A stretch of 43,738 bases of DNA, filler included, from Catajapyx aquilonaris (GCA_000934665.2; 2 parts of 2 records of this genome joined end to end with filler, not necessarily neighbours in it); one strand, 5' to 3'; numbered from the whole stretch's first letter, positions 3,382-31,790 are shown. Made by a program: numbers and translations. Notes: a model not told the origin generated them from the sequence alone.

Positions 3382-6300
3382 ATGGAGGACGACAATGTGA
3401 CCCTGTCAGGTCTAGCTTCAGCTCAACGTGACCTGGGTGTACTTCCTGCAATACTCTTCGGGGAAGGTCAGTTACTTCTTTGTATACACTAATATTGATT
3501 GCCATTACCTTGAATGTAGTCGCGGTTGATGATATAATGTCATTACGCTAAGTGTTGTTTATTTTCATGTGCATGTGTCCACCTGTGTTATTGTTCGTTG
3601 AATATGTAAGGATTTTTTTAAATTTAAAATGGTGGACAACTTTTAATTAAAAAAAATTAAGTTTCTGGTTAATTTCATTTTGCCAAAAAGCACCTATATC
3701 AAAAGTGATTACTTTTGCCTCTTTATACAAAAAAAAAGTGGAGCCATGTATAATCAAAACTGCACGTAACATGCGACTTATGAATAACTTAATGGGGGCA
3801 ATTCGCACACCATTACGTAACTAGTAATTCGCATTCATACCTGCCACCTTCAGTCAAAACTATTTGTTTGGACATAACAATCGATGCGTACATGACCTTG
3901 AGCTTGAAGAATATTGCCTTCAACCTTTACAAAGTCAAGGGCACCTATTCAAATATTCAATGCGCTTATTTCGCCTTTTTTTCCTCCCCAAACATGGCTT
4001 GAATATATATCAAGGCAAAATCAGTTTTTCACAAAAGAGTCACATATTGTACAAAATTTTCAAAATATGTCCTGAGTCTATGGGACTCCCGGCTATCTTT
4101 CTCTCTGGGACCGATAGACCGCACGTGGCTTCCACCGACTATCGCCAAATTTGTCAAGCGCAATTTAGCCACGCGTGTCGTTTTCCCCAGGCACAAACCA
4201 GAGGGGGTTGGGGGAAGTACTTTCGACAACAATTCTACTAAAGTACATAAAAAAGAGACAGTCAGACAAAAGGGTGGGTCTCTAGAGAGCTACTTCTCGT
4301 AATGGAATTTTGGGAAGAGCCCCTAGCTTCCTATTGAAGTTTTTGGTCAAAATCTGTGATAGGTCGGTTATAAGTGGTGTTGCTACTGGCTACGTATGAC
4401 CACTTAGCCCGTGGACTAACGGAAAGGTCACCAAATTTTGTTGGTTTATTACAGGCTTTAGGATGAGCTTGAACATGCTCAGCTGAGAGCAAAGTTTCAG
4501 CTCAATTAGCGCGAAGGTACTTTACGAGACAAAGGCATGGCATTGTTCCCCTAATTATTTCTCACTGAGATACGTCATGGTTGTTTATAACTTAAAGAGC
4601 AAAATTTACTACCTAAATGATTTAAATAATATATTATATTTGTAACTGTAATTGAACCAAAATGACGCAAATAACGGTTGACCCTAGAGGCTTGTTCTGA
4701 GACAATTAACTCTTCAAACCTAGAGGCCTAATTATTTTTGAGATACGTCTGAGATACGTCATGGTTGTTTATAACTTAAAGAGCAAAATTTGCCAACTGA
4801 ATTATTGAAATAATATATTATATTTGTAATAGTAATTGAACCAAAATGACGCAAATAACGGTTGACCCTAGAGGCTTGTTCTAAGACAATTAACTTTTAA
4901 CCCTAGAGGCCTAATTATTTCTGAGATACGTCTGAGATACGTCATGGTTCTTTATAACTTAAAGAGCAAAATTTACTAACTAAATTATTTAAATAATGTA
5001 TTATATTTGTAACTGTAATTGAACCCAAAATGGCGCAAATAACGGTTCACCCTAGAGGCTTGTTCTGAGACAAAGCTTCATTAACAAAAAGGCCCTCAAG
5101 CTTCAACCAATTAATCCAAAGGAGCTTCTGGTTGAATTGTACCTTTACGAGTGTAATATTGGCGTTTCCTTGACATTGAGCTTGTCGTAAAGCCAAATCG
5201 TAGCCTGTAGCTATTTTACTATCGAGGATTAATTAGAAACTCTTTCCAAGTTCGCGATATTTTACTGTACAAACGTCGCCACAAAGCCTGCAAAAAGTGA
5301 CAAAAGCTGGCATTGTTGGGTTGGAAACTATTTGTGGATAAAAATGGCATCAAGGTTGTGTCTTCCCACGGCTAAGGTCGCAGTTTCACCATTAGAGAAG
5401 CAACTTTGGCCATTGTCATGTAATTCACACCCAAGACCTTTTCTCCACCAAGTCGCGCCATTACTTCTACGTATTTGTGTCTTGCAAAATTGGCAAAAGG
5501 TCTTTGGCCAAGCAAATTGGAACTCCGATATGTCTCCGGTTCGGTGACAGAAATTATAGTGTTTATCCCTAATCAATGTTTCTGAACAGAATCGCATAAT
5601 TGATTAATACGATCTGTTTTAGCAGCTATAATTTGTCTGATAATATCGCAGTTACTTGATCATATTGGCATACCCCCTTTTTTTTTGCTATAGAAAGTGC
5701 TTGGAAGCTCAACATGAAATATGACTCACAGTGGAACAGCGACCACAAATTTAAGTTTGGAGTGCATTGAACCTACAGTGGAACACATTTTTCATACTGT
5801 AAATATTTGAATCATTTCATATGATAACGTATAGCTCTTACTAACCTATAGGGTTTCGAATGAAATACCTTATACCCGGAATTTACCTTATAGGCGACTC
5901 ATGTTAGCCTCCCATTTACCCTTTATACGTGTCTGTTTACCTTCTATGCACGACTTTACCTTCTATATTTCCCCTTACCTTCCATATTTAGAAGGTATTT
6001 TGCACATAGAAGGTAATTTATAAGGTAAATGGTTAAGAGTGTATAACTCCTTATGAGTAGTGATTCTATGAGTGATATAAATAAAGTGGGCATGTACAGC
6101 CTTGGCAATGAGGTATTTCCTTTGCGAAAAAGCCAGCCTTGATCAAATGAGAGATGCTCCAGACCCAATGGGTGTAATTTATTAAGTCGGACGTGGCTTT
6201 GAAGGATATCCTAAAGTTACCTCTACCCCCGTACCTCCAATTCAGTTTCCTGGCCTTGGCTTGTAGGTTTTTTCACCCTAAGTTATCTCAACTTGTAGGA

Positions 6301-15300: not shown

Positions 15301-18300
15301 TTACCGAATCGATGACGTCATTTGCAGAAATTGATGGCACATGTTAGCCGATCGCACGTGAACTTATTGCACTCAAAGTTCTTATAGGTCGCTCATTTAA
15401 AGCTCACGACATCTTCTTAATGATCGGATATTACAATTTTTTTAATTACCGGTACTTTCCGCTTTATACCCGACATGCCGGGGCAGAATTGCACTCCCTA
15501 CTCTGCCGAGGGCCAGGAAAAAAGGTCTGGTGTATTTCACCTAATGACTAAAAATTACAGCGCCCTCCCTTAGCGCCCCCTAAAACGGGGTTTTTTGTTC
15601 AAAAAATTACCGGTAATTGAAGTATGACATTATTGTGGTTACAAACATTCAGCTTAGCCATATTTTACTACTTTATCTCCTTAAGTTTGACCTACATTAT
15701 AGTTTGCTTATGCAGTCATATTAAACATCAAATAACTTCCGGCACATCCCGTAGTACTACGCTTCACGTAAACATTCTGGAGATGACAAATTACGTGTCA
15801 TACCCTATTTGCGTTTGGTGACATAAAAGGACATTGGCCCTACACATTTTCTTCTAGCAAGCGCTAACAAACCCTTCTATTGGGCTTTTCCAAGGCCGTC
15901 GCCAAAAAATGTTGCGGAAGTTTCAAAATCCCCGGACATAAAACCAAGGGGTTATCATTCGGTCCGATCTTATGCAGTATTCATGACCAGTCCCATTAGA
16001 CTTGTCCCGCTGTTTCCAAGCCCCACAACTGCTGAAATGTGAAACTGGTGCGACTGACCAATCATGAATCGCCTTTCCCATCGGAATTCCAAAAAAATCG
16101 ACCTACATACCCCGGCCATTTTTGCTTCCTGTTCCCCAAAATATTGCAGGTCAAAAGAACTTTTTTTTGACACATAAAAAACGAGGCCAAAGGGCAACAA
16201 AAATGGCCTGAATTCTAAAGTTTTGAACCATTCACGGTCGTTGCATCTACATTAATGAATGATAATGATCGTCCTCAATGTGTGGACAAAAAAAAAGCGG
16301 TGAGTCTGATACGATTCAAATGGTGGACTATTCGGTTTTTATAGGCTTGAAGATAGCTACACTCACGCAGTGTTTCAAGGTCTTAAAGTTGTTCCCCTAG
16401 AGTCGCCTTGTATCTATGCTTTTTGTGGAACAAGAGAGACACTTAAGTTGCATAGTGGTTAGGATGACTGCTGTTTCATACTTGTAGATAGTGGGAGGTA
16501 CTGGGTTCGATTCCCGGGCCGGCGATCCTGACCGTCCAGGATAATTCCGGGGTCGTTTCCCGTATAATACACTCTTAACCATTTACCTTCTCTAGAGAGG
16601 GTAAATGGTTAAGAGTGTAGGCTTCTTGGGTCCAACCAATGGTGGTATTCCACCCCCCTAATGGGATAAAATAAATAAATAAATAAAAAGATAGTGTTTG
16701 ATAATAATGTTTCACTGTAGATTTGTGNTTTGATAATAATGTTTCACTGTAGATTTGTGCTGAGCCTGGTTTCGGCTAACCTGCTGACGTCGGTGGTGGT
16801 GGTACCGGTGGTGCTGGTGCAGGTGGTACAGTCAGAGGTGACATCGTGGGGATGGTGGCGACAGAGTGTGTGCAGCCTCACTACCTTAGTGGTCATCGCT
16901 TCTGTCTTTTCTATCCTCCTGATTGCTGTGGATAGATATTATGCGGTCACTAGTCCGTTGCACTATTCCATGACTATTACAAGGCACAGGAGCAAGTTGA
17001 TGATTTTGGGTGTTTGGGTGGCTGCGTTTATACTGGCACTTCCGCCAGTGTTTATGGAGGAACAGTCTTTCACGTCGAGTTCTACGTGTTCGCCAACATC
17101 TTCTGCGATGGAAGAAGATATGTTTCCACATACCCAGAAGGTAAGTTAGTGTGTTGTGCCTTATGAGTTGGGTTCTGAAATATTTCTATTGCACAGCTAT
17201 GGTATGCCTTGGTATTGACTGTGTTTGGATTCGCGCTTCCTCTGGTGGTACTATGCTGGGTGTATGTGCGAATGTACCATGCAGCTCACAAGAACAGCGA
17301 GCGAACTCGAAGGCACAGCTTGTCCACCAACCCTGGTGAACTAGTAGACCCCGGTTCAATTCCGGGCACACCTGACCCATCTTATCAACACCAAGTGGCA
17401 TCGGCTGTCCATCACTATCACCATCCTCATCTGCACTACCTGAAGAACAAAAAGAACAGCACCAGTGGATCTGGAAGCAGCAATGGATACCGTCGGCGAA
17501 GCTCAAACGCCAGTTTCTCAGCCCTGTTCTTCCGTGAGGAAGGCAGGGCCGTGAAGACCGCTGTGATGGTCATTGCGTCCTTTCTGCTCTGCTGGACACC
17601 CTACTTTGTGACCATTCTGGGCGAAAGCAGCAGCATTCTTGCTGTGCGGATGCCGTCCATCTGCCGCTTCTTAGCTCTGGTGTCAGCTCTGAGCAGCGCG
17701 GCTTTAACACCGTTTATTTATGTGTACCGCAACGACACCGCAAGCTCCGAGGCCCTCAAGGTGAGATATACACCCATACGCCCTTCCTAGCCAGAAACAG
17801 TCAGGTTCAGACTTGTAAAAACCTGTGCTAACAAGTTCAATCCTGTTCATTCCGGTTGCGACAGGTTCAATCCTGTTCAATCCGGTTTCGACAGGTTCAA
17901 TCCTGTTCAATCCAGTTTCGACAGGTTCAATCATGTTCAATCCGGTTTCGACAGGTTCAATCATGTTCATTCCGGTTTCGACAGGATTTGACAAGTTCAA
18001 GCCGGTTATGGTTCTGAATGTTCCATCCTGACCATCTCTCAGGTATTGTGCTGGTGGAAGAAACGGGAGTCACCCACACCGTTTCCTCCAGCGACTCCTG
18101 CCAAAGGAAGCATCAGTGCTGGAGGAACTCCGGCGAAGACCTGGCTGGAGCAGGAGACCATTTCGGTGCACAGCCTAGGTTGCAGCCTGGACCTGCCGGA
18201 CGGGATTCGGGTTGTAGATGCCAGTGGTACCGGTGCTAACCAGCCTGATGCGGCGGCTGAACCAGCACATGGGGTTTTCAATGGTGTTCTGCCGCACCGT

Positions 18301-21962: not shown

Positions 21963-22727
21963 GTGAAGAACGCAAGCAGCTGGTCATCCCTTGCTCAGGC
22001 AACATCTCCACAGTCAAGTGCATCAAGTACCAAACTGAAGTCAGTGATGGACAGTTTCCAGCAGTTTAAGAAGCAAGCAAAAGAGAAGGCAGACCGGCAA
22101 AGAGCGCTTATAGAGCAACAGGAGATGCGTCGTTATCAAAAGGAGCAGGCAGAAAGGGAGAGGCTACGAGCAGAGACTGAGAGGAGGAGAGAGCGGGAGG
22201 AAGAGGAGGCATTGGAGAGGACCAGGAAGGCTGCACAGGAGCAGCAGCAGGCCCAGCAGCAGCAACAGGCAAAGGCTGCCACACCGCCCCAGGTGGTTCC
22301 TCCAATACCCTCGCCTAAAGTGGCACCTGCTGTGGTGGCAACACCTCCTGCGGTGGTTGCTGTGAAGCAAAGTGCGGTGAAACCTGTGTCACCGGCAGGG
22401 CAAGCAACAGGGAATGGAGGGGGTGGTGGAGGAGGTAACAGTCCTGGGATGCAGAAGTCAGCAGCAGAAAGAGAAAGGGAGAGGCTCCGGGAGCAGGACA
22501 GGAGGAGGAGAGAAGCGGTGAGTAGCGAAGCATACAGAGACTGCCTATTTTCAGTTATTTATTTGGCAGTGATATTTGTGACGTGACAAAACAAGCTTGC
22601 AGTATCGGTGAACATTGAAAGGTGTTGGGGACGACAATAATGGCATAAATTTAATTTCCAGATGGCGGGGCAGATAGACATGAATATGCAGAGCGACTTG
22701 ATGGCTGCTTTTGAGGAGACCTTATAA
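21963..22727 (+). CDS. BRD4: BET-family bromodomain protein (BRD4 / fs(1)h long-isoform type), last two exons only
   Basis: Exon 21963-22517 (ag|GTG...GCG|gtgagt) encodes VKNASSWSSLA...DSFQQFKKQAKEK...ERERLREQDRRRREA. Exon 22662-22727 encodes MAGQIDMNMQSDLMAAFEETL*, the conserved BRD4 C-terminal (P-TEFb-interacting) motif. The bromodomain and ET exons are absent from the window, which has the contig linker immediately upstream. Confidence 0.92.
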
Positions 22728-25700
22728 CGAATGCTGATGGGCATAAGCAAGACCGGACCAATTCGTTCGCTCTAAGATTGTACATGAATTAGTACACTTT
22801 CGATGGGGCTTGGGGAGGGAGGGGGGTACAACGTGGTACTGAAAAAAATTATGTAAATAATATTTGTGATACTGTCGCTGGAATGGTGGCGGCTGAAGCT
22901 GACAAGTGTGGACAGTGAGTGACAGTGGGATTTTTACCGAGGACATGATCATGTGAAAGAATGAGTGTTTATTTGTGTTCGCCACTTCAATTATTGTCAA
23001 ACATCCTAATTGTACATAGAGAGTAGCCTAATTTATTTGATAGAAGGCATGAGTTTGACAAACATTTGTTCCTCACCCCCATAATTATGTATGGCACAAT
23101 AGTTGACTTAGGAGTGGGTGGGAACAAAGCAAGTGGGTGGGAAGAACATTCTTTTTATATTTTCACCCAACCCACACGAATTGTTTAGTTGTTATAATTT
23201 ATTCATGAAATAGCTATATTTTCGTTGATATTTTTTGATTTAATTTGAATTTTTTTGGGTAGCCGACCAGAACAAACTTACCTTTGTTCATGCACATAAA
23301 TCTTGTCAGCCATTATGGGACATCCAATTTGTTATAGAGATAAAACGTATAGGATAAAAAGGATTAGTTCCAAGAACAGTGGTAACATCACATGGGAGCC
23401 CATAATCACCACCCCCACCCCCCTTCTGTTTAGCCCACCCCCTTTTTTATTGTTTTGTATTGTGCTTCATGCCCCCAACTCAATGGCACTGTCATGAAGT
23501 GTGTATGTGTGTGTGTGTGTGAAAAGTTTCCTTCTCCCTTGCAATTAGTTGTGCTTTGCAAGACGAGAAGCACTAATCCAACCCTGTAGGTGATACAGGT
23601 TTTGGTCTTGTTATGGCGTATTGTACATTTTTGTTAACTAGACTGAAAAGAGCCATGATTTTAAAAATCATTGTGTGGGGCCGAGAAATGGCCGCTTACA
23701 TTCTTCCATATTCTTTCCTTATTGGATGAACAGCCATGCAGTCACTTGGCAGGTGATTAGAGAAGCTGACTAGTGTACTTCTTTGGCAAAAATATTGTAT
23801 TATTGTTGAGAGTTGATTCACGAGTGTGTGACCAAATTGTGTTAAATGTGAAAAAAACAAAAACCCTTTTGTCCTGTATTAATTTATTGCAGTTGAAGGA
23901 TTTAAAAAAAGACCATACTTTGCTTTTGCCAGGATGCAAGAGAACCTTGATGAACTATTTCTGCAGTAAATTCTTGCTTTTTAATATTCGCCAGGATCAT
24001 TCCCATTACACTATTACCGCAGCATAGTTGATGAGGGTTCTTTTGCATGTTGATTTGGTTCCTTTCCAAGGTTTTTATTTTCCAATGAAAAGCTCAGGCA
24101 ACTAGATTTACTTTATAGGCATTGTTACATGTTATCTGCTCACCCGGCATAAATCTAGGTTGCGTCCAGTTTGTGGAGATGGAGAATAAAGGAAGTCAAT
24201 GATTGGGGGGAACAAAAAGTTTATGCTGTAATATTTAATTTACGAAGATAAAAAAACCGGTGTATTAACTTTAAAAAAACGATGTATTGACCCTGAGTGA
24301 AAGAAAATTATTTTCATAGCCGTCAGATTTTTGCAGTCATTCTTCGTTGGGGTTAGTTGTAGTGGGCTATTTGGGATACCTGTTGGGTTTTCTGGCAGCT
24401 GCAAGTGTGGCAAGGAAGACTCATAAAAAAGAATTGATTGCTCAAAGTTTCAATGTGAATGTTTTTAAACATGTCATTTGCTGGATGACTGAAAAGATTA
24501 GAAGAAGAAAAAAAAATGACTTGTATTAAATCTCTCCTGAAGTTATTTGAAATATGATGCTTTGCAGAGTATTCTGGTAACCCCCTGGCAAAAAAATTAG
24601 ATAAATGCTATCTAATGGCTACGCTGACATGACATTTTATTCTGAGGCTTGGAATTATTTACCAGAGCCATGGGTTGAGGATAGATTTTTCACGCGTGCA
24701 CATGGAAAGTTTGGTGACTTTGGGATTCGGAGCTTCGGATCATGTCGTGATTCAATTACATGTTGAACCTATCTATATGTCCTTGGCCACTAGTATACGA
24801 TTTTATTACAAGGCAGTATTAATTAGGGCAGGTCAATGAACTCATAATTGAATTTTCTCCAACTACTGTAATCAAGTAGCTTAAGTGTAATTGCCCACTA
24901 ACAGATAACTTGCCTTTCTTCTTCAACTGGCATGTTCAAAGTTCTGCTCGGGATGTATGATTTGCCAGTTACACATTGTAATGTCCTGGGACTATTTGCC
25001 TTCACTTTGAAGCAGGTTACAGCCATAATATATTTAAAAAGTAATAAAATTAAAAACCAATAAAATTATAAAATAACCACAAAAAATGTAGAGTTAGGGC
25101 TCCAGATTATGTTACTTGGGTGCATGTGAGGTAAATATCTTGCTGTAGCTTTCTGGGCAGTTTTTTCAACCAATCACCACCTGACCTCATAATTTAAATC
25201 AAGGGCAAGTTGTGGTGAGGGGGAGGAAGTGGTCATCTGTTTTCAACAAATCCCCAGTCAACTTCAGACTCATCCTACCTGAAAATACACACACACAAAA
25301 AAATAGCATTCCCCACATTATGGTGTTAAAAATACATCTAATCCTGTCCTGCATTACCTTTCATGTTTCCTCCAGCCTGTACATAGACTATATTACCATA
25401 TGCTATGGATTTCACTCTCACCTAGGAAGGGGTGGGTTAGAGGGTGGGGGAGTGGGGTGGGTAATAAATCATGACCAAACCTTTGTCCCTCCCAGAGAAA
25501 AATGATGAGAAGGAATAGTATAATCCTATATGAAAAATAAATGTGAAATATCTGCCACACTGTGCATGCCTGTACTACTAGGGAATTTGAAACAAAAATG
25601 TGTATGTTGTGATATACTCGTATCTCTTATGGTATACCATGATTTGTTTATAGTGATGGACGTTGAACTAACAAGTACATAAACTTGACGTTTAGCAATG

Positions 25701-26025
25701 AAAATGCCTCCTTTTTATTGCTGTTTGTGTGCATGCAGCGTGTTGTGTGTAACAGAACAAGTCCACTGCAATAACTCTTTTATTGTCCCATTTCTTTTTT
25801 AACTCTCAATCCTTAAAATTGGCTAAAACTTGTGCATGAAAATGCACTACATTTGCACTCAGTGCTTTAAACACATGCTGATTCATTTGGGGGTGGGAAG
25901 AACCAAAGAGAAAAAATAAATTGTCACTTGACATGGTCTATACACAACCCACTGCTTTCCAGCAACTATATAATCTTAGATGTGGCATTCCCTCTGCACT
26001 CCTGGAGAGGGGGCTGCCCTCTGGG

Positions 26026-27351
26026 TCAGTGGCAGTGCTCCGTGATGTCCACTACTACAGACTTCTTCCATCCAAAGACAAAGTACCCAAAGGCCGCTCC
26101 CAGTGCCACTGCCAGGCACAGCCACACGTTATATGTCATGAAGATAAGCATGAGGAAGTAGCTGAGCACCACTTGCACCACGTGGAGGAACGTCTGATAC
26201 AGGTGGATGCAGCTGAACATGTGTGTTCTGCCCGTAAAGAAAAATGTTTCATGAACTTGCACTGACCTCATTTTACCACAAAGAGACAGCAACCGAACAG
26301 ATGACAGTAGGCAGGAATAGTGTTAGGACTCCATATTTGCGCCTTGGAACATCACTCATGTTAGCCGTGCTTTAGTGGTTTACAAAACAAATCATGGGCA
26401 TGCTAGCCAAGATGAAAAGCCCTCCGCAACAAAGGAAAACCCTTCAATTTGTGCACTTGCAACAATAATTGCCCACGAAAGGATTCTCAATGTTTCCAAC
26501 ACATACTGAATATTAATAAATTACCAACCTTTTAAAAACGAGTTCATAATAATTATTGTCCTACATAAGGGCAAACTTGCTTCACAACAAGACTGATAAG
26601 CTCGGCACAAAAGTGGGGATGAGAACCACATAGGTGAACTTACACATGGAAGCCAAAGAGGTAGCTGTAGGGGACTCTGCTGGAATCGTTCATGTACTGG
26701 CACATGTCAATCGCTGATGGGCACTGCCCACAGTCACTCCCATGCTGGCAACCTGATGCCTTCCTGAACGCACACAGAGGTGGGAGGCAAGGGAAAGACA
26801 GAAAAACAGACAAAAAGTGGCAGGGGGAGAGCAGAAATCAGGGAAAAGACAAAGTCTACAAGCCAGTGGCAGGATACTCACGGCACTACTTTGGGCCCAT
26901 CGCTGACCACCACCCCCTTGTCATTGGGCACTGCAACTGAGCTGTACTCTATGCCCTGGTAGGTCTTGCGGAAGAGGTATTCCCTGTAGTACTTGAGCCC
27001 CTCATACAAGGCAGCCATGATGAAGATGCCAATCATGGATCCTAGTAACCCTCCTATACTGTTAACCTTCCAACCTTCGAAGAGTATCGTGGCGCTGCAG
27101 CCAGCATGAAAGTACATCTTCATCCCTCCATGGTCCATCCCTCCGGTACCGTTTTTGTCCATCCCACCGTGGTCCATTCCACCATGATCCATTCCTCCAT
27201 GGTCCATCCCACCGTGGTCCATCCCACTGTGGTCCATTTCCCCTCCACTGTGGTTCATGGAGTGCATGGAGTGGTCCATTTCGTGTATGGCGTGGCTGGT
27301 CCCCTCCGTCGTCGTGGCCATCCCCATCATGGCGTGGTGATCGTGGGACAT
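26026..27351 (-). CDS. SLC31A1: High-affinity copper uptake protein Ctr1 (SLC31 family), 223 aa (263 aa with the candidate cassette exon)
   Basis: Exons 27351-26882 and 26227-26026 join in phase 2 (cc|gtgagt ... ggcag|a). Met/His-rich ectodomain (MDHGG repeats), [18 protein letters not shown]2 MLIFM (MxxxM), TM3 GAAFG (GxxxG), C-terminal HCH. Confidence 0.96.
26644..26763 (-). CDS. Candidate 120-nt in-frame cassette exon of Ctr1 (Cys-rich cytosolic loop insert)
   Basis: ~80-nt polypyrimidine tract then ttcag| acceptor; |gtaagt donor; phase 2-2 with no stop. Translates as (P)[39 protein letters not shown](V). Confidence 0.6.
27120..27285 (-). repeat. Coding 15-bp tandem repeat (MDHGG)n in the Ctr1 ectodomain
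   Basis: Translation [39 protein letters not shown], with synonymous variation between units. Confidence 0.9.
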
Positions 27352-30300
27352 GTCTGCTGTCTCAGGAATCCTATTGTGTATTGTGCACTGCAACTGAGAG
27401 AAGGCCTTGGAATGAAGCCACCTTACCACCCACTAAAACCCAGTCTCTCTCATCCGCACCAATCACAGCCAATAATGGACAAGTGTCTCTGAACTGAACT
27501 GTTTAAAATTCGCCCCAACTCCACCCCCAACCTTCCTCCCTGCCTTATATCCTGCCTCAAACTGTAAACCATATTTCCTGCCACACAGAAAAGTCAGAAA
27601 GCACCCTTATCTAGTCTCAAGGACAGGGTTTTATCAACATGGTGGGAAGGGGGGAATACACATCTGCTGATTATGAAACTGGAAATAACTTAAATATTTT
27701 TGCCTCCCAGCATCATCTCAAGACCATCCTATTGTTCTCAAAGGCAAAGCATTCCATTCCTGGACATGTTTTGGAGGTGGGCAGCACGTACCCAAATTCC
27801 AGGAATTCTCCCTCAAATGGAATTTCATTAAAGGCAGAAGGCTATGGAATTTGTGGAATTGCAGCGCAGGAAGCCGCTTTGGCCGCAATTTCCTCCTTAT
27901 CGCAGGATTGGGGTTTGGCTCACAAACGGATCACCAGTTGATCGGTTGCAATTATTTGCCTACATGTGGCAACGACTCAGGCCAAATAGAGCATCACGGG
28001 AAAGCACTGGGAACAGATGCTTCAGCAATTTGCTTACTCAGTCAGGCGTGCATGTCAACAGCCTTGCATGACAACCATGACAAAAATGTAAAAATAATCT
28101 GATGTGGCTATGAGGCAAACAATAAGGCGTCATATGGTGATAAGAAATTCCCACAAAGCTCCCCGAAAAATATGTCCAGTTAATAGCACTGTACAGCATT
28201 GACAAATATGTACATAAGCTGCCAATAATGTAGCTGTTTGCAAATTTCCAAATGAATACTGCATGGAGGTACTGCCCTTAATCTTTGCTGAACATATTGC
28301 CACATGCTTTGACGCAGTTGATCACAGTTAGCACAGGTGCACCTTGTTGGGGCACATTGTAGCTGGAAAAACCACAGCACTTGGGGCTTCGAGCTGGCAA
28401 TGGTTAGCTATTGTCTGGCTTATCTCCAACATGTGGTTAAACCAAAAACCCACTTCCAAGCTCCTGTGGCTCCACAAAAATTTATATCACCATTTTCATA
28501 AGTCGTATAAGCTATTCATGAAGACACATGCAAGGGGCGAAAAAAGGGTCTTGGCCTTGAAGAGATAAATTCTGAAGGATGTTGCAAATTCCCACTAAGG
28601 CCGTCCCTGCAACATTGTTACTTTCATATCTGCATTTGATTAAAATAGCAAGTGTTGATGCAGCAATACAATGTGCTAAGAATAAGATCAATGACCAAGT
28701 AAATACTTATTGTATAGGGATGAGAATGGGATAGAATTGCTGATGTTTAGATAACGCTGTGTATATGTAAATGCAGTGTGACATTTTCCTAATCAATGGT
28801 GCATTGTGTATGTTAACTTATTACTTTTTGAAAGAAAGGTAGACCAAACAGGATTTTTTTTGGGGGGTCTACTACCAGTGCCTTGCATTTCTGCTATGCT
28901 GTAGGTTCACATTTTGGCCATACGCCCTAAAATGGGGTCAGATTTGTTTCGATAAGCTGTGTTTTTTTGTTTTTTTTTCAATGTTAGTTTACTCTCACCA
29001 ACAGATGCAGGAATGGTACTTACACAAAACGAAGATTACATAATTGGCATAAACCTAACAAAATGGTCACACAGATTTAAAGGTCTAATGCATCCTAATC
29101 CTATCTATTATCCTTGCCAGAAGGAAGACAGAGAAGTTTGCACCTGGTGTATCCATTTCAGAATCACTAGGATAAGGAACAGTTCGGCAATCTTACTGGA
29201 GAGATACACTTGCACTCTAATGAGTGGTACATTATGCAAGGAAAAACCTGCATCAAGTAACTTAATTTCACAACCATTACGTGACGTGGCTGCGCAGTTG
29301 GGTACATCACATGTTCTTATCTCTAGTGAGGACAGAGGTCAATTCAGATTATTGCAGAAGCCCCCCAATTGCAAGGAATGAAACAACCATGCTTCTTTTT
29401 AATCCACTCTAGTGCCTGTATTCTCAAACCGAGCTGACAGGCTCTCAAAAGATGGAAGTTCAGACATAGTTCACATGGTGCTGTGTTTCTGAGATTATTT
29501 CTCTGTCCTGTCAAAACAAGGTTGCAAATTGAGAAACAGCGACAAAAATTTTCAAAACGTGCAATGATCTGTCAGTGTCAATTATTAGTTTATACTTTAT
29601 AAGATCAAAAATTCCAGAATTCCACTTGGAATGATTCTTACTGAGGCACACACATCACGGTTAGTAATGATACAGGCCTACAATAGAGCAAACTTTGCAA
29701 GTATTTCTAATTATCATCCGTAAAACAGCATGATTATTTTTGTAATTGCTGGCTTGGTGCCACATATGATGTTTCAGAAATCAAGTTATTGATATACAAA
29801 TATTAATATCAACAGTTTAATGATATAAATAATATCTATGATATAAATAATATCTACAGTTTCATTTGAGTTTCAGTTTCCTGCCACTTGATAATATTAA
29901 AAATGTATATTACATTTAAAAAAATTAAATCAGAAATTCAAGATTTGCCTGGACAGCCTTGTTTTTATTACAGGACAGTACTGTATTGTTAACAATTATA
30001 TTTTGCTAATTATTTTTGTTGACGTCTTAATGGTATAATTTTAAAATGACACTAACCTAACCTCCCTAAGTTCCTAATGCACTTACATGTAGGCCTAACT
30101 GATCAGTTTCTCCATGTTGCATAGAAATGTGTATGATCCTAGAAATCCTTATAAAATGGATCACCCATCTGTCAACCTCTTTCCCTGTATTTTTTGGTCA
30201 CGACAAATGGCTGATTAGTGAAGCATACTGTATTTGGGGAGGAAGCCAGTCCATGCCCCAAAAACTGTCCATTCCGAATGGGTTTTCACCACAGAAGAGT

Positions 30301-30939
30301 CCTTACAACCCTCGCCAAGGCTCGACATTAGGCAGCTGTTGTCTTCCCAGTAAATCAATCAGTTTTTGCATAATCATTGCAGGCTTGGGCAAAAGATTAA
30401 CCAAAAATGCCTCACCACTTCCCTTTGAACCGTCTGAAATACTTATTCAAGCTACAATTTTACAACTTGTTTTCTTAAAGACCACCAAATATGACACAGT
30501 GAAATCTGGCTCCAGCAGACCCTGGATTCCCTGGAAACGCGCTGAATGCAGACTCCGAGTCCCAGTGGTTGATTTTCAATGCACGTCTGTCCCATTATAT
30601 TCTTTTACTAATTCCACGGAAGAGAGCATACAGATTCCACTGATTCAGTTTCCCTCCTGATCTCCGCTCTACAACACTGACTTGCATTTTTGATTTTAAT
30701 TCACCCCACACCCAACCAACATCCACACTTTGTAAACATATGGGACATGGCAAATGTTGTGTGAAGAGCTCCAGTTGTCCCTGCACATTCAAAATGCCAA
30801 AGGTCTCCCTTCCCAGAGGCAGTAAATAGGGGCGTGCCAATAGAGTGAGGGGCATGAAATATTGAAGGTGGCGAGAGACAAACGGGCAGCATATTGTGGG
30901 GGTTTGGACAGATGGGAAATTATGCTGCACTGTGGAACG

Positions 30940-31790
30940 ATCAGCTGACGTAGTGTTTCCCTTCCTTACCTGGCAGTGACTCGGGTGTCTGGGCTGCGGG
31001 CTTCAGCGCCTAGCGAAGGTGGACGGGGAGGCAGGAGCAGCAGATGTTGCCCTCGCCGTCTTCCCAGCACCATCGGCCATCTCTCCGTCTCTCGCCTACC
31101 TACCTCCAGCCAGACCTCCTCCGCCTCCTCATTTTTTCCACTCTCTCCCCGCCCCCGCCCCCATCCACTTCCAGCCTCCCACCTCCCTCCCTCCCACCCT
31201 CCACCTCCACATTTCCCCCGTTGCCAGGTCACACACTCACGCAAATCGCAGGAGGGACATTAACACACCCACTTTATCACGTCGTCTGTACGTTTCACTA
31301 CCATTCGAATTACAGCTGCAATTGGCACAGGAGAAACGATGAAATTCTTACCTGTCCAAGCTGTCCAAGTGTCGATGAGGGCGGTGTGGATCTGGCAACC
31401 TGCGTTCCAAATTAAGATGGCGGCCGAGTGAGAGTGGAGCTGGCGCACGGGGTGGTGTGAATGCAGACGAGATTTACACACACCAGCTGAGCTTGTCGTG
31501 TGGGCTGCGTTGTCAGGAGCGGTAGGTAGGCAGGGAGTGAGGGTACGGACCGACGCGGCTGGCATTGCTTGGCTGTCGGCCGAGTTGTGTCGATCGCGAG
31601 GATCTTGTTGTGTGTCCAGTCACGTGACGGCAATAAGTGACCGGGAGGAATGGATGGTCGCGGAAGAGAACTTTACTGACAACGCCTTCACTTTGCAGGG
31701 ACTGTCTCGAGTGAAGAGGAGGAGGGATGCTTTTCGGAGGGGACGACGACGATGCTGACTTTACGCTTCCAACAGGCGGAGGAAGGTGGG
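30940..31790. promoter_or_regulatory. CpG/GC-rich putative bidirectional promoter and 5' exons shared by Ctr1 (-) and FKBP15 (+)
   Basis: GC- and CpG-rich island inside CpG-poor flanks. Minus-strand splice donors cag|gtaag at 31352/31351 and 30970/30969 (candidate Ctr1 5' exons). YY1-type AAGATGGCGGCC at 31414-31425; palindromic E-box GTCACGTGAC at 31619-31628; FKBP15 ATG at 31727. Confidence 0.75.

Follow-up and report, generated by a model that had tools for sequence, protein, structure and literature searches.

Organization of the Ctr1 locus

The window analyzed here, a stretch of 43,738 nucleotides (filler included) from the genome of Catajapyx aquilonaris, carries on its minus strand a gene that, judged from its sequence, encodes a Ctr1/SLC31 copper importer of the pancrustacean type and hosts an alternative cassette exon. 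The parts of the gene are listed below in the order of transcription; X1 denotes the public run described in the next section.

30970–30987, minus strand: 3′ end of a 5′-UTR exon, with the donor CAG/gtaagg at 30970/30969, located via the loose end of a transcript contig
27394–30969, minus strand: intron 1 (3576 nt, GC 0.40)
26882–27393, minus strand: exon 2, with the ATG at 27351–27349, encoding the Met/His-rich ectodomain, TM1, and the initial portion of the cytosolic loop; covered by an X1 contig (26882–27396, depth 64.7)
26764–26881, minus strand: intron A (118 nt, gtgagt...ttcag, 74.6% pyrimidine), spliced out in X1 contig 2
26644–26763, minus strand: alternative cassette exon (120 nt, phase 2-2), with both junctions in X1 contig 2
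26228–26643, minus strand: intron B (416 nt, gtaagt...gggcag, GC 0.40), spliced out in X1 contig 2
26026–26227, minus strand: coding part of the last exon, encoding the loop end, TM2, TM3, and the C-terminal HCH, with the TGA at 26028–26026; covered by X1 contig 1

Both coding exons match the Pfam Ctr profile (PF04145, cut-off 25.3 bits), exon 2 with 55.2 bits (E 1.5e-14) and the last exon with 64.6 bits (E 1.9e-17). A sequence search of the PDB aligns the last exon with the salmon Ctr1 crystal chimera (entries 6m97/6m98) at an E value of 5.9e-28. The Ctr family is defined by a Met/His-rich ectodomain, an MxxxM motif in TM2, a GxxxG motif in TM3, and a C-terminal HCH. All of these hallmarks can be read from the translations: GMDH repeats in the Met/His-rich ectodomain, MLIFM in TM2, GAAFG in TM3, and a C terminus ending in ...TEHCH before the stop codon. 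The closest Ctr1 proteins in a collection of 5.8 billion clusters are insect sequences annotated as "high affinity copper uptake protein 1 / Ctr1A", with 53 to 73% identity over TM1 and the loop and 67 to 73% for the best ones. When the part of exon 2 that encodes TM1 and the loop was used as a query against metagenome assemblies, seven loci were found at 53 to 64% identity; those read match insect Ctr1, and there is no close relative of the Catajapyx gene among the seven.

On the minus strand, coding exon 2 ends in ...GTA GTG CC/gtgagt at 26882, and the last exon starts with gggcag/A ACA CAC ATG... at 26227, from where it runs on as 3′ UTR past position 24500. Upstream, X1 contig 4 carries a 15-letter loose end at 27396, which has a unique match at 30973–30987, while 0 of 100 shuffled versions matched. 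Within intron 1, an X1 contig of 253 nt and depth 2.7 maps to 28936–29188 (minus strand); it may represent an alternative leader exon, or else an unrelated transcript. The ectodomain contains, at 27126–27260 (minus strand), a run of near-perfect G-G-M-D-H units that appear in the DNA as tandem 15-nt repeats; this run is a lineage-specific expansion of Met/His copper-gathering motifs.

The cassette exon is both included and skipped

X1, a run from the same species whose library kind is unrecorded, is the sole public run containing the locus (0.60 of sampled words), and its contigs were compared with positions 24500–29500 of the window. The 5′-UTR splice is also visible in it, indicating that the run holds processed transcripts. 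Two contigs bear directly on the cassette. Contig 2 (180 nt, depth 21.4) joins the segments 26911–26881/2, 26762/3–26644, and 26227–26198, and so leads from exon 2 through the cassette into the last exon. The other, contig 3 (60 nt, depth 29.9), contains the direct skipping junction 26882>26227 and lacks the 654 nt from 26228 to 26881, which correspond to the whole Ctr1 intron. The junctions 26227>26644, 26762>26881 (cut +1), and 26227>26882 are all bordered by CT..AC on the plus strand, hence by GT..AG on the gene strand. The original prediction of an in-frame Ctr1 cassette exon, used beside a skipping form, had named the inclusion junctions 26882>26763 and 26644>26227 and the skipping junction 26882>26227 as its test, and all three are found in contigs 2 and 3 of X1.

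The two contigs, with their common flanks, have the shape of an alternative-splicing bubble. The sum of their depths, 21.4 + 29.9, falls between those of the flanking-exon contigs, 64.7 and 38.1. Taken as 21.4/(21.4 + 29.9) = 0.42, the inclusion share is about 42%, a value from the contig depths of one run, which are a poor measure of expression. Inclusion and skipping mRNA forms thus both exist at comparable contig depth in this run, and we hold the cassette exon to be real with high confidence. X1 shows one difference from the window, at 27238, where it has a G instead of a T (plus strand); codon 38 in the Met/His-rich ectodomain is thereby changed from GAA to GAC, Glu to Asp, by a polymorphism or an error.

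As the junctions come from a single run, contig 2 might be an assembly chimera, or it might stem from a second, near-identical copy of the gene that always includes the segment. Such an artefact is most improbable: the contig shows 0 differences from the window over 30 + 119 + 31 letters, has exact GT..AG borders on both sides, and shares its flanks with the skipping contig as the arms of a splice bubble do, and no second Ctr1 copy is present within the 43.7-kb window.

An internal ctacag acceptor, which would give a nested 21-nt version of the exon (26664–26644), is present in the sequence as predicted. The nested version appears in no X1 contig, and this carries no weight either way, given that contigs drop rare variants.

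Sequence and composition of the cassette

The cassette (26763–26644, minus strand) lies between an upstream ...cctctgtgtgcgttcag and a downstream gtaagt. Its 120 nt are free of stop codons in the frame of the flanking exons, and the junction codons, CC/G for Pro and GT/A for Val, show that the frame is kept at both ends. The description that had been made of it from the DNA holds in each respect: the phase 2-2 segment, its ttcag acceptor, and its gtaagt donor lie where they had been placed, the very long polypyrimidine tract corresponds to the 74.6% pyrimidine of the 118-nt upstream intron, and the translation is the one given, with four Cys including a CGQC motif, two His, two Met, and a Tyr-rich tail. 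The 39-letter peptide has its Cys residues in the spacing C-x5-C-x2-C-x6-C and contains three Tyr; its aromatic tail, ...VPYSYLFGF, includes the YxxΦ match YSYL. Four Cys in 40 residues is a modest enrichment only.

The main alternative to a functional module is a young, lineage-specific exonization at a splice-permissive site, which would be genuinely spliced and neutral, the long isoform having no adaptive role. We regard this as somewhat unlikely, although it deserves serious weight, and the evidence from the intron itself points both ways. Open in-frame segments bounded by AG and GT are not rare there: of 591 such pairs spaced by 30 to 300 nt in the same 654-nt intron, 24 are frame-preserving and free of stop codons, so that an open segment alone is unremarkable. 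It is the junctions seen in the RNA that raise the cassette above chance. Against a neutral exon stand the inclusion level estimated from contig depth, the near-consensus splice sites, the preserved frame without a stop, and a base composition that is exon-like, unlike that of the surrounding AT-rich intron. The GC content of the cassette, 0.542, is close to those of the flanking coding exons (0.549 and 0.515), compared with 0.401 in intron B, 0.404 in intron 1, and 0.381 in the 3′ UTR; its GC3 is 0.67 versus 0.71 and 0.75 in the constitutive coding exons. This coding-like composition lends modest support to the view that coding-type constraints have acted on the exon for some time, the support being modest because the cassette has only 40 codons.

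Position of the insert in the transporter

Skipping is predicted to give a protein of 223 residues with a short loop, and inclusion an isoform of 263 residues with 40 extra residues in the TM1-TM2 loop. As far as the available text of a recent review of CTR1 goes (PMC12731240), this loop is intracellular and comprises 46 residues in the human protein, in agreement with the cytosolic location given for it in the original prediction. The last exon of the window aligns with the 6m97 chimera from chain residue 161, and according to excerpts of PMC12748717 the crystallized construct carries BRIL in place of loop residues 94–120. The cassette junction therefore lies at, or next to, a point at which the crystallized trimer tolerates a large foreign domain.

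An AlphaFold2 model was calculated for an insect long isoform (P0010), which carries a microexon-encoded insert at the same junction (see below). In this model (32-sequence alignment, mean pLDDT 63.5), TM1 is a helix spanning residues 90–130, residues 136–157, including the microexon, have pLDDT values below 50 and are predicted to be disordered, and TM2 starts at residue 163. Combined with the alignment of the last exon, the disorder of the insect microexon region suggests that the Catajapyx insert likewise occupies a flexible segment, only a few residues ahead of TM2. Within the trimer, the insert would be positioned near the intracellular exit of the pore and the HCH tail. A disordered, insertion-tolerant loop is also in keeping with a neutral exonization, since a neutral insert would be tolerated there.

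Search for relatives of the cassette peptide

None of the 5.8 billion protein clusters contains three 5-residue words of the cassette peptide. A phmmer search of 1.84 billion representatives returned two matches only, both to repeat proteins unrelated to Ctr. The first (P0122, 1183 aa) shows 27% identity. The second (P0123, 94 aa) consists of three tandem CGQ/H-VPVAVDMCQ-S repeats with 50 to 67% identity over 15 to 20 residues of the cassette, a likeness that is probably due to chance or to translated repeat DNA. In the PDB, the sequence search found nothing below the E value of 0.47 obtained for PUT3 (1zme/1ajy), and in the ESM Atlas the best score was 0.79, which is at chance level. The peptide thus has no homologue in any of these searches, as would be expected of a recently exonized segment.

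The CxxC motif had been likened to the metal-binding domains of Atox1 and ATP7. This comparison does not extend to family membership: the cassette gives no HMA match at E ≤ 0.1, its 39 to 40 residues compare with the approximately 70 residues of the βαββαβ fold, and its CGQC is not preceded by the M/T-x context. The sole Pfam match is to zf-CXXC (PF02008), at 16.3 bits and E 0.01, below the cut-off of 26.5 bits; together with the E value of 0.47 for PUT3, this does not place the cassette in the zf-CXXC or the Zn2Cys6 family. The C-x5-C-x2-C-x6-C spacing that underlies the weak resemblance to zf-CXXC and to the Zn2Cys6 domain of PUT3 could nevertheless reflect a small structural Zn(II) knuckle, acting as a protein-docking surface with no part in copper transfer. 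We consider such a knuckle very improbable, as both matches are sub-threshold, no fold can be assigned to 39 residues without relatives, and the site at a Cu(I) pore exit favors Cu(I) thiolate chemistry.

Homologues of the transporter itself provide another comparison. In the 112 arthropod Ctr1 homologues with a delimitable loop, the loop contains no Cys in 107, one Cys in four, and two Cys in one, versus a predicted five in the loop of the Catajapyx long isoform. The original prediction had described the motif as not known from this loop of animal Ctr1, and indeed none of the 112 homologues has a comparably Cys-rich loop; none has a comparable insert either, which is in keeping with a young exon. 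A search for Ctr1 forms longer than 273 aa found two, both from Trichogramma kaykai and neither of them Cys-rich: the insert is of the microexon type in one, while the second has an unrelated insert of 34 residues. The ligand-rich loop content provided by the cassette therefore appears to be unmatched in any homologue examined.

An insect microexon occupies the same intron

At the same junction, 50 of the 112 arthropod homologues carry a 10-residue insert (...VV-H-MVGEVIHKQ-P-PTM...), whereas 58 read directly through it (...VV-Q-PTM...). Forty-nine of the 50 inserts were found by pattern, and P0124 has the variant MLGEVVHRQP. A few other length variants are seen in P0044, P0067, P0112, P0088/P0090, and P0125. 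Hymenoptera and Coleoptera include single species in which both forms are annotated as an X1/X2 pair of RefSeq isoforms (a RefSeq label, distinct from run X1):

Leptopilina boulardi: P0007/P0005, RefSeq isoform pair X1/X2
Wasmannia auropunctata: P0010/P0009, RefSeq isoform pair X1/X2
Microplitis mediator: P0106/P0104, RefSeq isoform pair X1/X2
Coccinella septempunctata: P0099/P0095, RefSeq isoform pair X1/X2

Insert-bearing forms are also present in Bradysia, Gryllus, and Blattella.

The exon structure behind these isoforms can be read from an ant-like genomic contig of metagenomic origin (L003). Its upstream exon ends in ...gtt ca/gtaagt at 2452, a 30-nt phase 2-2 microexon follows at 2752–2781 (ag/T ATG ... 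CAA CC/gtaagt), and the last exon starts at 5106 (cag/G CCG ACT...). Besides L003 (2452–5106), the contigs L002, L004, and L005 bear on this alternative microexon; the transcript-like L004 and L005 are near-identical outside the insert site and differ by the insert.

Comparison of L003 with the window shows that the insect Ctr1A microexon and the Catajapyx cassette share the gene family, the intron position, the phase 2-2, and the insertion site in the encoded protein (...VV-[junction codon]-PTM/THM...). Both lie near the intron's 5′ end, and both preserve the frame in genes with inclusion and skipping forms. They differ in length and content: the insect microexon has 30 nt, encodes H-MVGEVIHKQ-P, and contains no Cys, whereas the cassette has 120 nt, and the two have no sequence similarity. 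They also differ in distribution, as the microexon is kept across Hymenoptera, Coleoptera, Diptera (Bradysia), Orthoptera, and Blattodea, while the Cys-rich cassette was seen in the Catajapyx genome only. A tblastn search with P0010 and P0068 (E ≤ 50) found no microexon-like sequence in the intron at 26228–26881 (minus strand), so that the two exons share a location and no origin that is visible in their sequences.

The alternation of a conserved 30-nt insect microexon in this phase-2 intron makes the site just before TM2 a recurrent splice-switch point. In our literature search, neither a Ctr1 loop cassette nor the insect Ctr1A microexon, which is annotated in sequence records, was the subject of any paper, and the available text of the recent CTR1 review (PMC12731240) mentions neither splicing nor isoforms. 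The conservation of the microexon across insect orders suggests that splicing control of the loop is a general and overlooked feature of arthropod copper uptake.

A putative copper site at the pore exit

How copper leaves the Ctr1 pore, reaches its chaperones, and down-regulates the transporter when abundant is still debated, and the contributions considered in the available parts of two articles include the HCH tail, His and Met residues of the loop, endocytosis, and monomerization (PMC12731240, PMC12748717). Two precedents described in such sources are relevant to the cassette. The human loop reportedly binds Cu(I) with one His and two Met residues and makes contact with Atox1 (Levy 2016, as cited in PMC12731240), to which the HCH tail also passes Cu(I) (PMC12731240, PMC4805863). 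In yeast Ctr1, the cytosolic C-terminal domain, which counts six Cys among its 125 residues, takes part in copper exchange with Atx1 (PMC4805863); according to the title of Xiao et al. 2004, listed there, this domain binds four Cu(I) in the form of a cuprous-thiolate cluster. Together, these precedents make a thiolate-rich Cu(I) site the most economical reading of the cassette.

In such a site, the four Cys of each insert, 12 per trimer, would combine with its His and Met residues into a soft-ligand environment that could capture Cu(I) as it leaves the pore. The captured copper might then be buffered or handed on, or the transporter might be throttled at high levels of cytosolic copper. The aromatic tail of the insert, ...VPYSYLFGF, would be placed at the membrane interface and contributes YSYL as a further YxxΦ-type motif. 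A copper-sensing, hand-off, or endocytosis role, as first proposed for the cassette, is something that we purely infer. Considered by itself, a copper-binding role is plausible but somewhat less likely than not. As a whole, the best explanation of the locus is a genuine cassette with a putative soft-ligand Cu(I) site at the pore exit, a combination to which we give a little less than an even chance.

The precedents are analogues in function and position. The segment of the human CTR1 loop resembles the cassette in lying within the cytosolic loop of the same transporter and in presenting soft or borderline ligands at the Cu(I) pore exit; it is constitutive, however, and, as described in PMC12731240, offers one His and two Met, whereas the Catajapyx ligands are four putative thiolates from an optional exon. 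The Saccharomyces cerevisiae domain is likewise a Cys-rich cytosolic appendage that could hold a Cu(I) thiolate near the pore exit, but it lies in the C-terminal tail rather than in the loop, is a folded domain of 125 residues, is not known to be alternatively spliced, and has no sequence relation to the cassette. Fungal CTR genes (RiCTR3A/B of Rhizophagus irregularis, CTR2 of C. gloeosporioides, and TCU-2 of N. crassa) are described, in the available text of PMC6531763, as giving rise to pairs of transcripts, for which a connection with copper stress has been suggested. The RiCTR3 event is an intron retention with a premature stop (PMC6531763), whereas the Catajapyx cassette is in-frame and adds a putative metal-ligand segment to the loop.

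The same features of the insert might instead serve trafficking or membrane tethering, with juxtamembrane Cys residues being S-acylated, or with YSYL and the aromatic tail acting as a sorting signal or interfacial anchor, so that splicing would determine where the transporter resides or how fast it is turned over. S-acylation is typical of Cys clusters that lie in the cytosol next to the membrane. The cassette is located a few residues before TM2 and ends in an aromatic, interface-type stretch with a YxxΦ match, and the excerpted text of PMC12748717 mentions a proposal that a YNSM motif in the loop of human CTR1 serves as a docking site for endocytosis. Yet the constitutive part of the Catajapyx loop already has the YxxΦ matches YQGI and YSSV, and short linear motifs easily arise by chance; we therefore judge this alternative improbable.

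A broader scheme could be envisaged for arthropod Ctr1, in which an ancient phase-2 intron before TM2 would act as a switch that sets the metal-ligand content of the cytosolic loop into which the pore releases Cu(I). Insects would toggle a His/Met microexon and the Catajapyx lineage a four-Cys module, with up to 12 thiolates per trimer, giving an isoform able to sense cytosolic copper and to buffer it, hand it on, or limit its own flux. This scheme is speculative and, in our estimation, rather unlikely to hold in full. An isoform pair that differs only by a thiolate-rich insert at the pore exit would constitute a ready-made natural experiment on copper exit and on the turning down of the transporter.

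Other features of the window

With its 4553 nt, the X1 contig that contains the last Ctr1 exon would, if collinear with the genome, reach about 21.7 kb and overlap a plus-strand open reading frame (21963–22586) with a weak, sub-threshold match to BRD4_CDT. A very long 3′ UTR could account for this contig, as could the merging, in an unstranded assembly, of convergent transcripts that overlap. On the plus strand, two adjacent open frames at 16721–17149 and 17179–17790 match the rhodopsin-family 7TM profile 7tm_1 (E 6e-22 and 3.4e-17) and contain a DRY-type motif; the pair probably represents two exons of a class-A GPCR gene.
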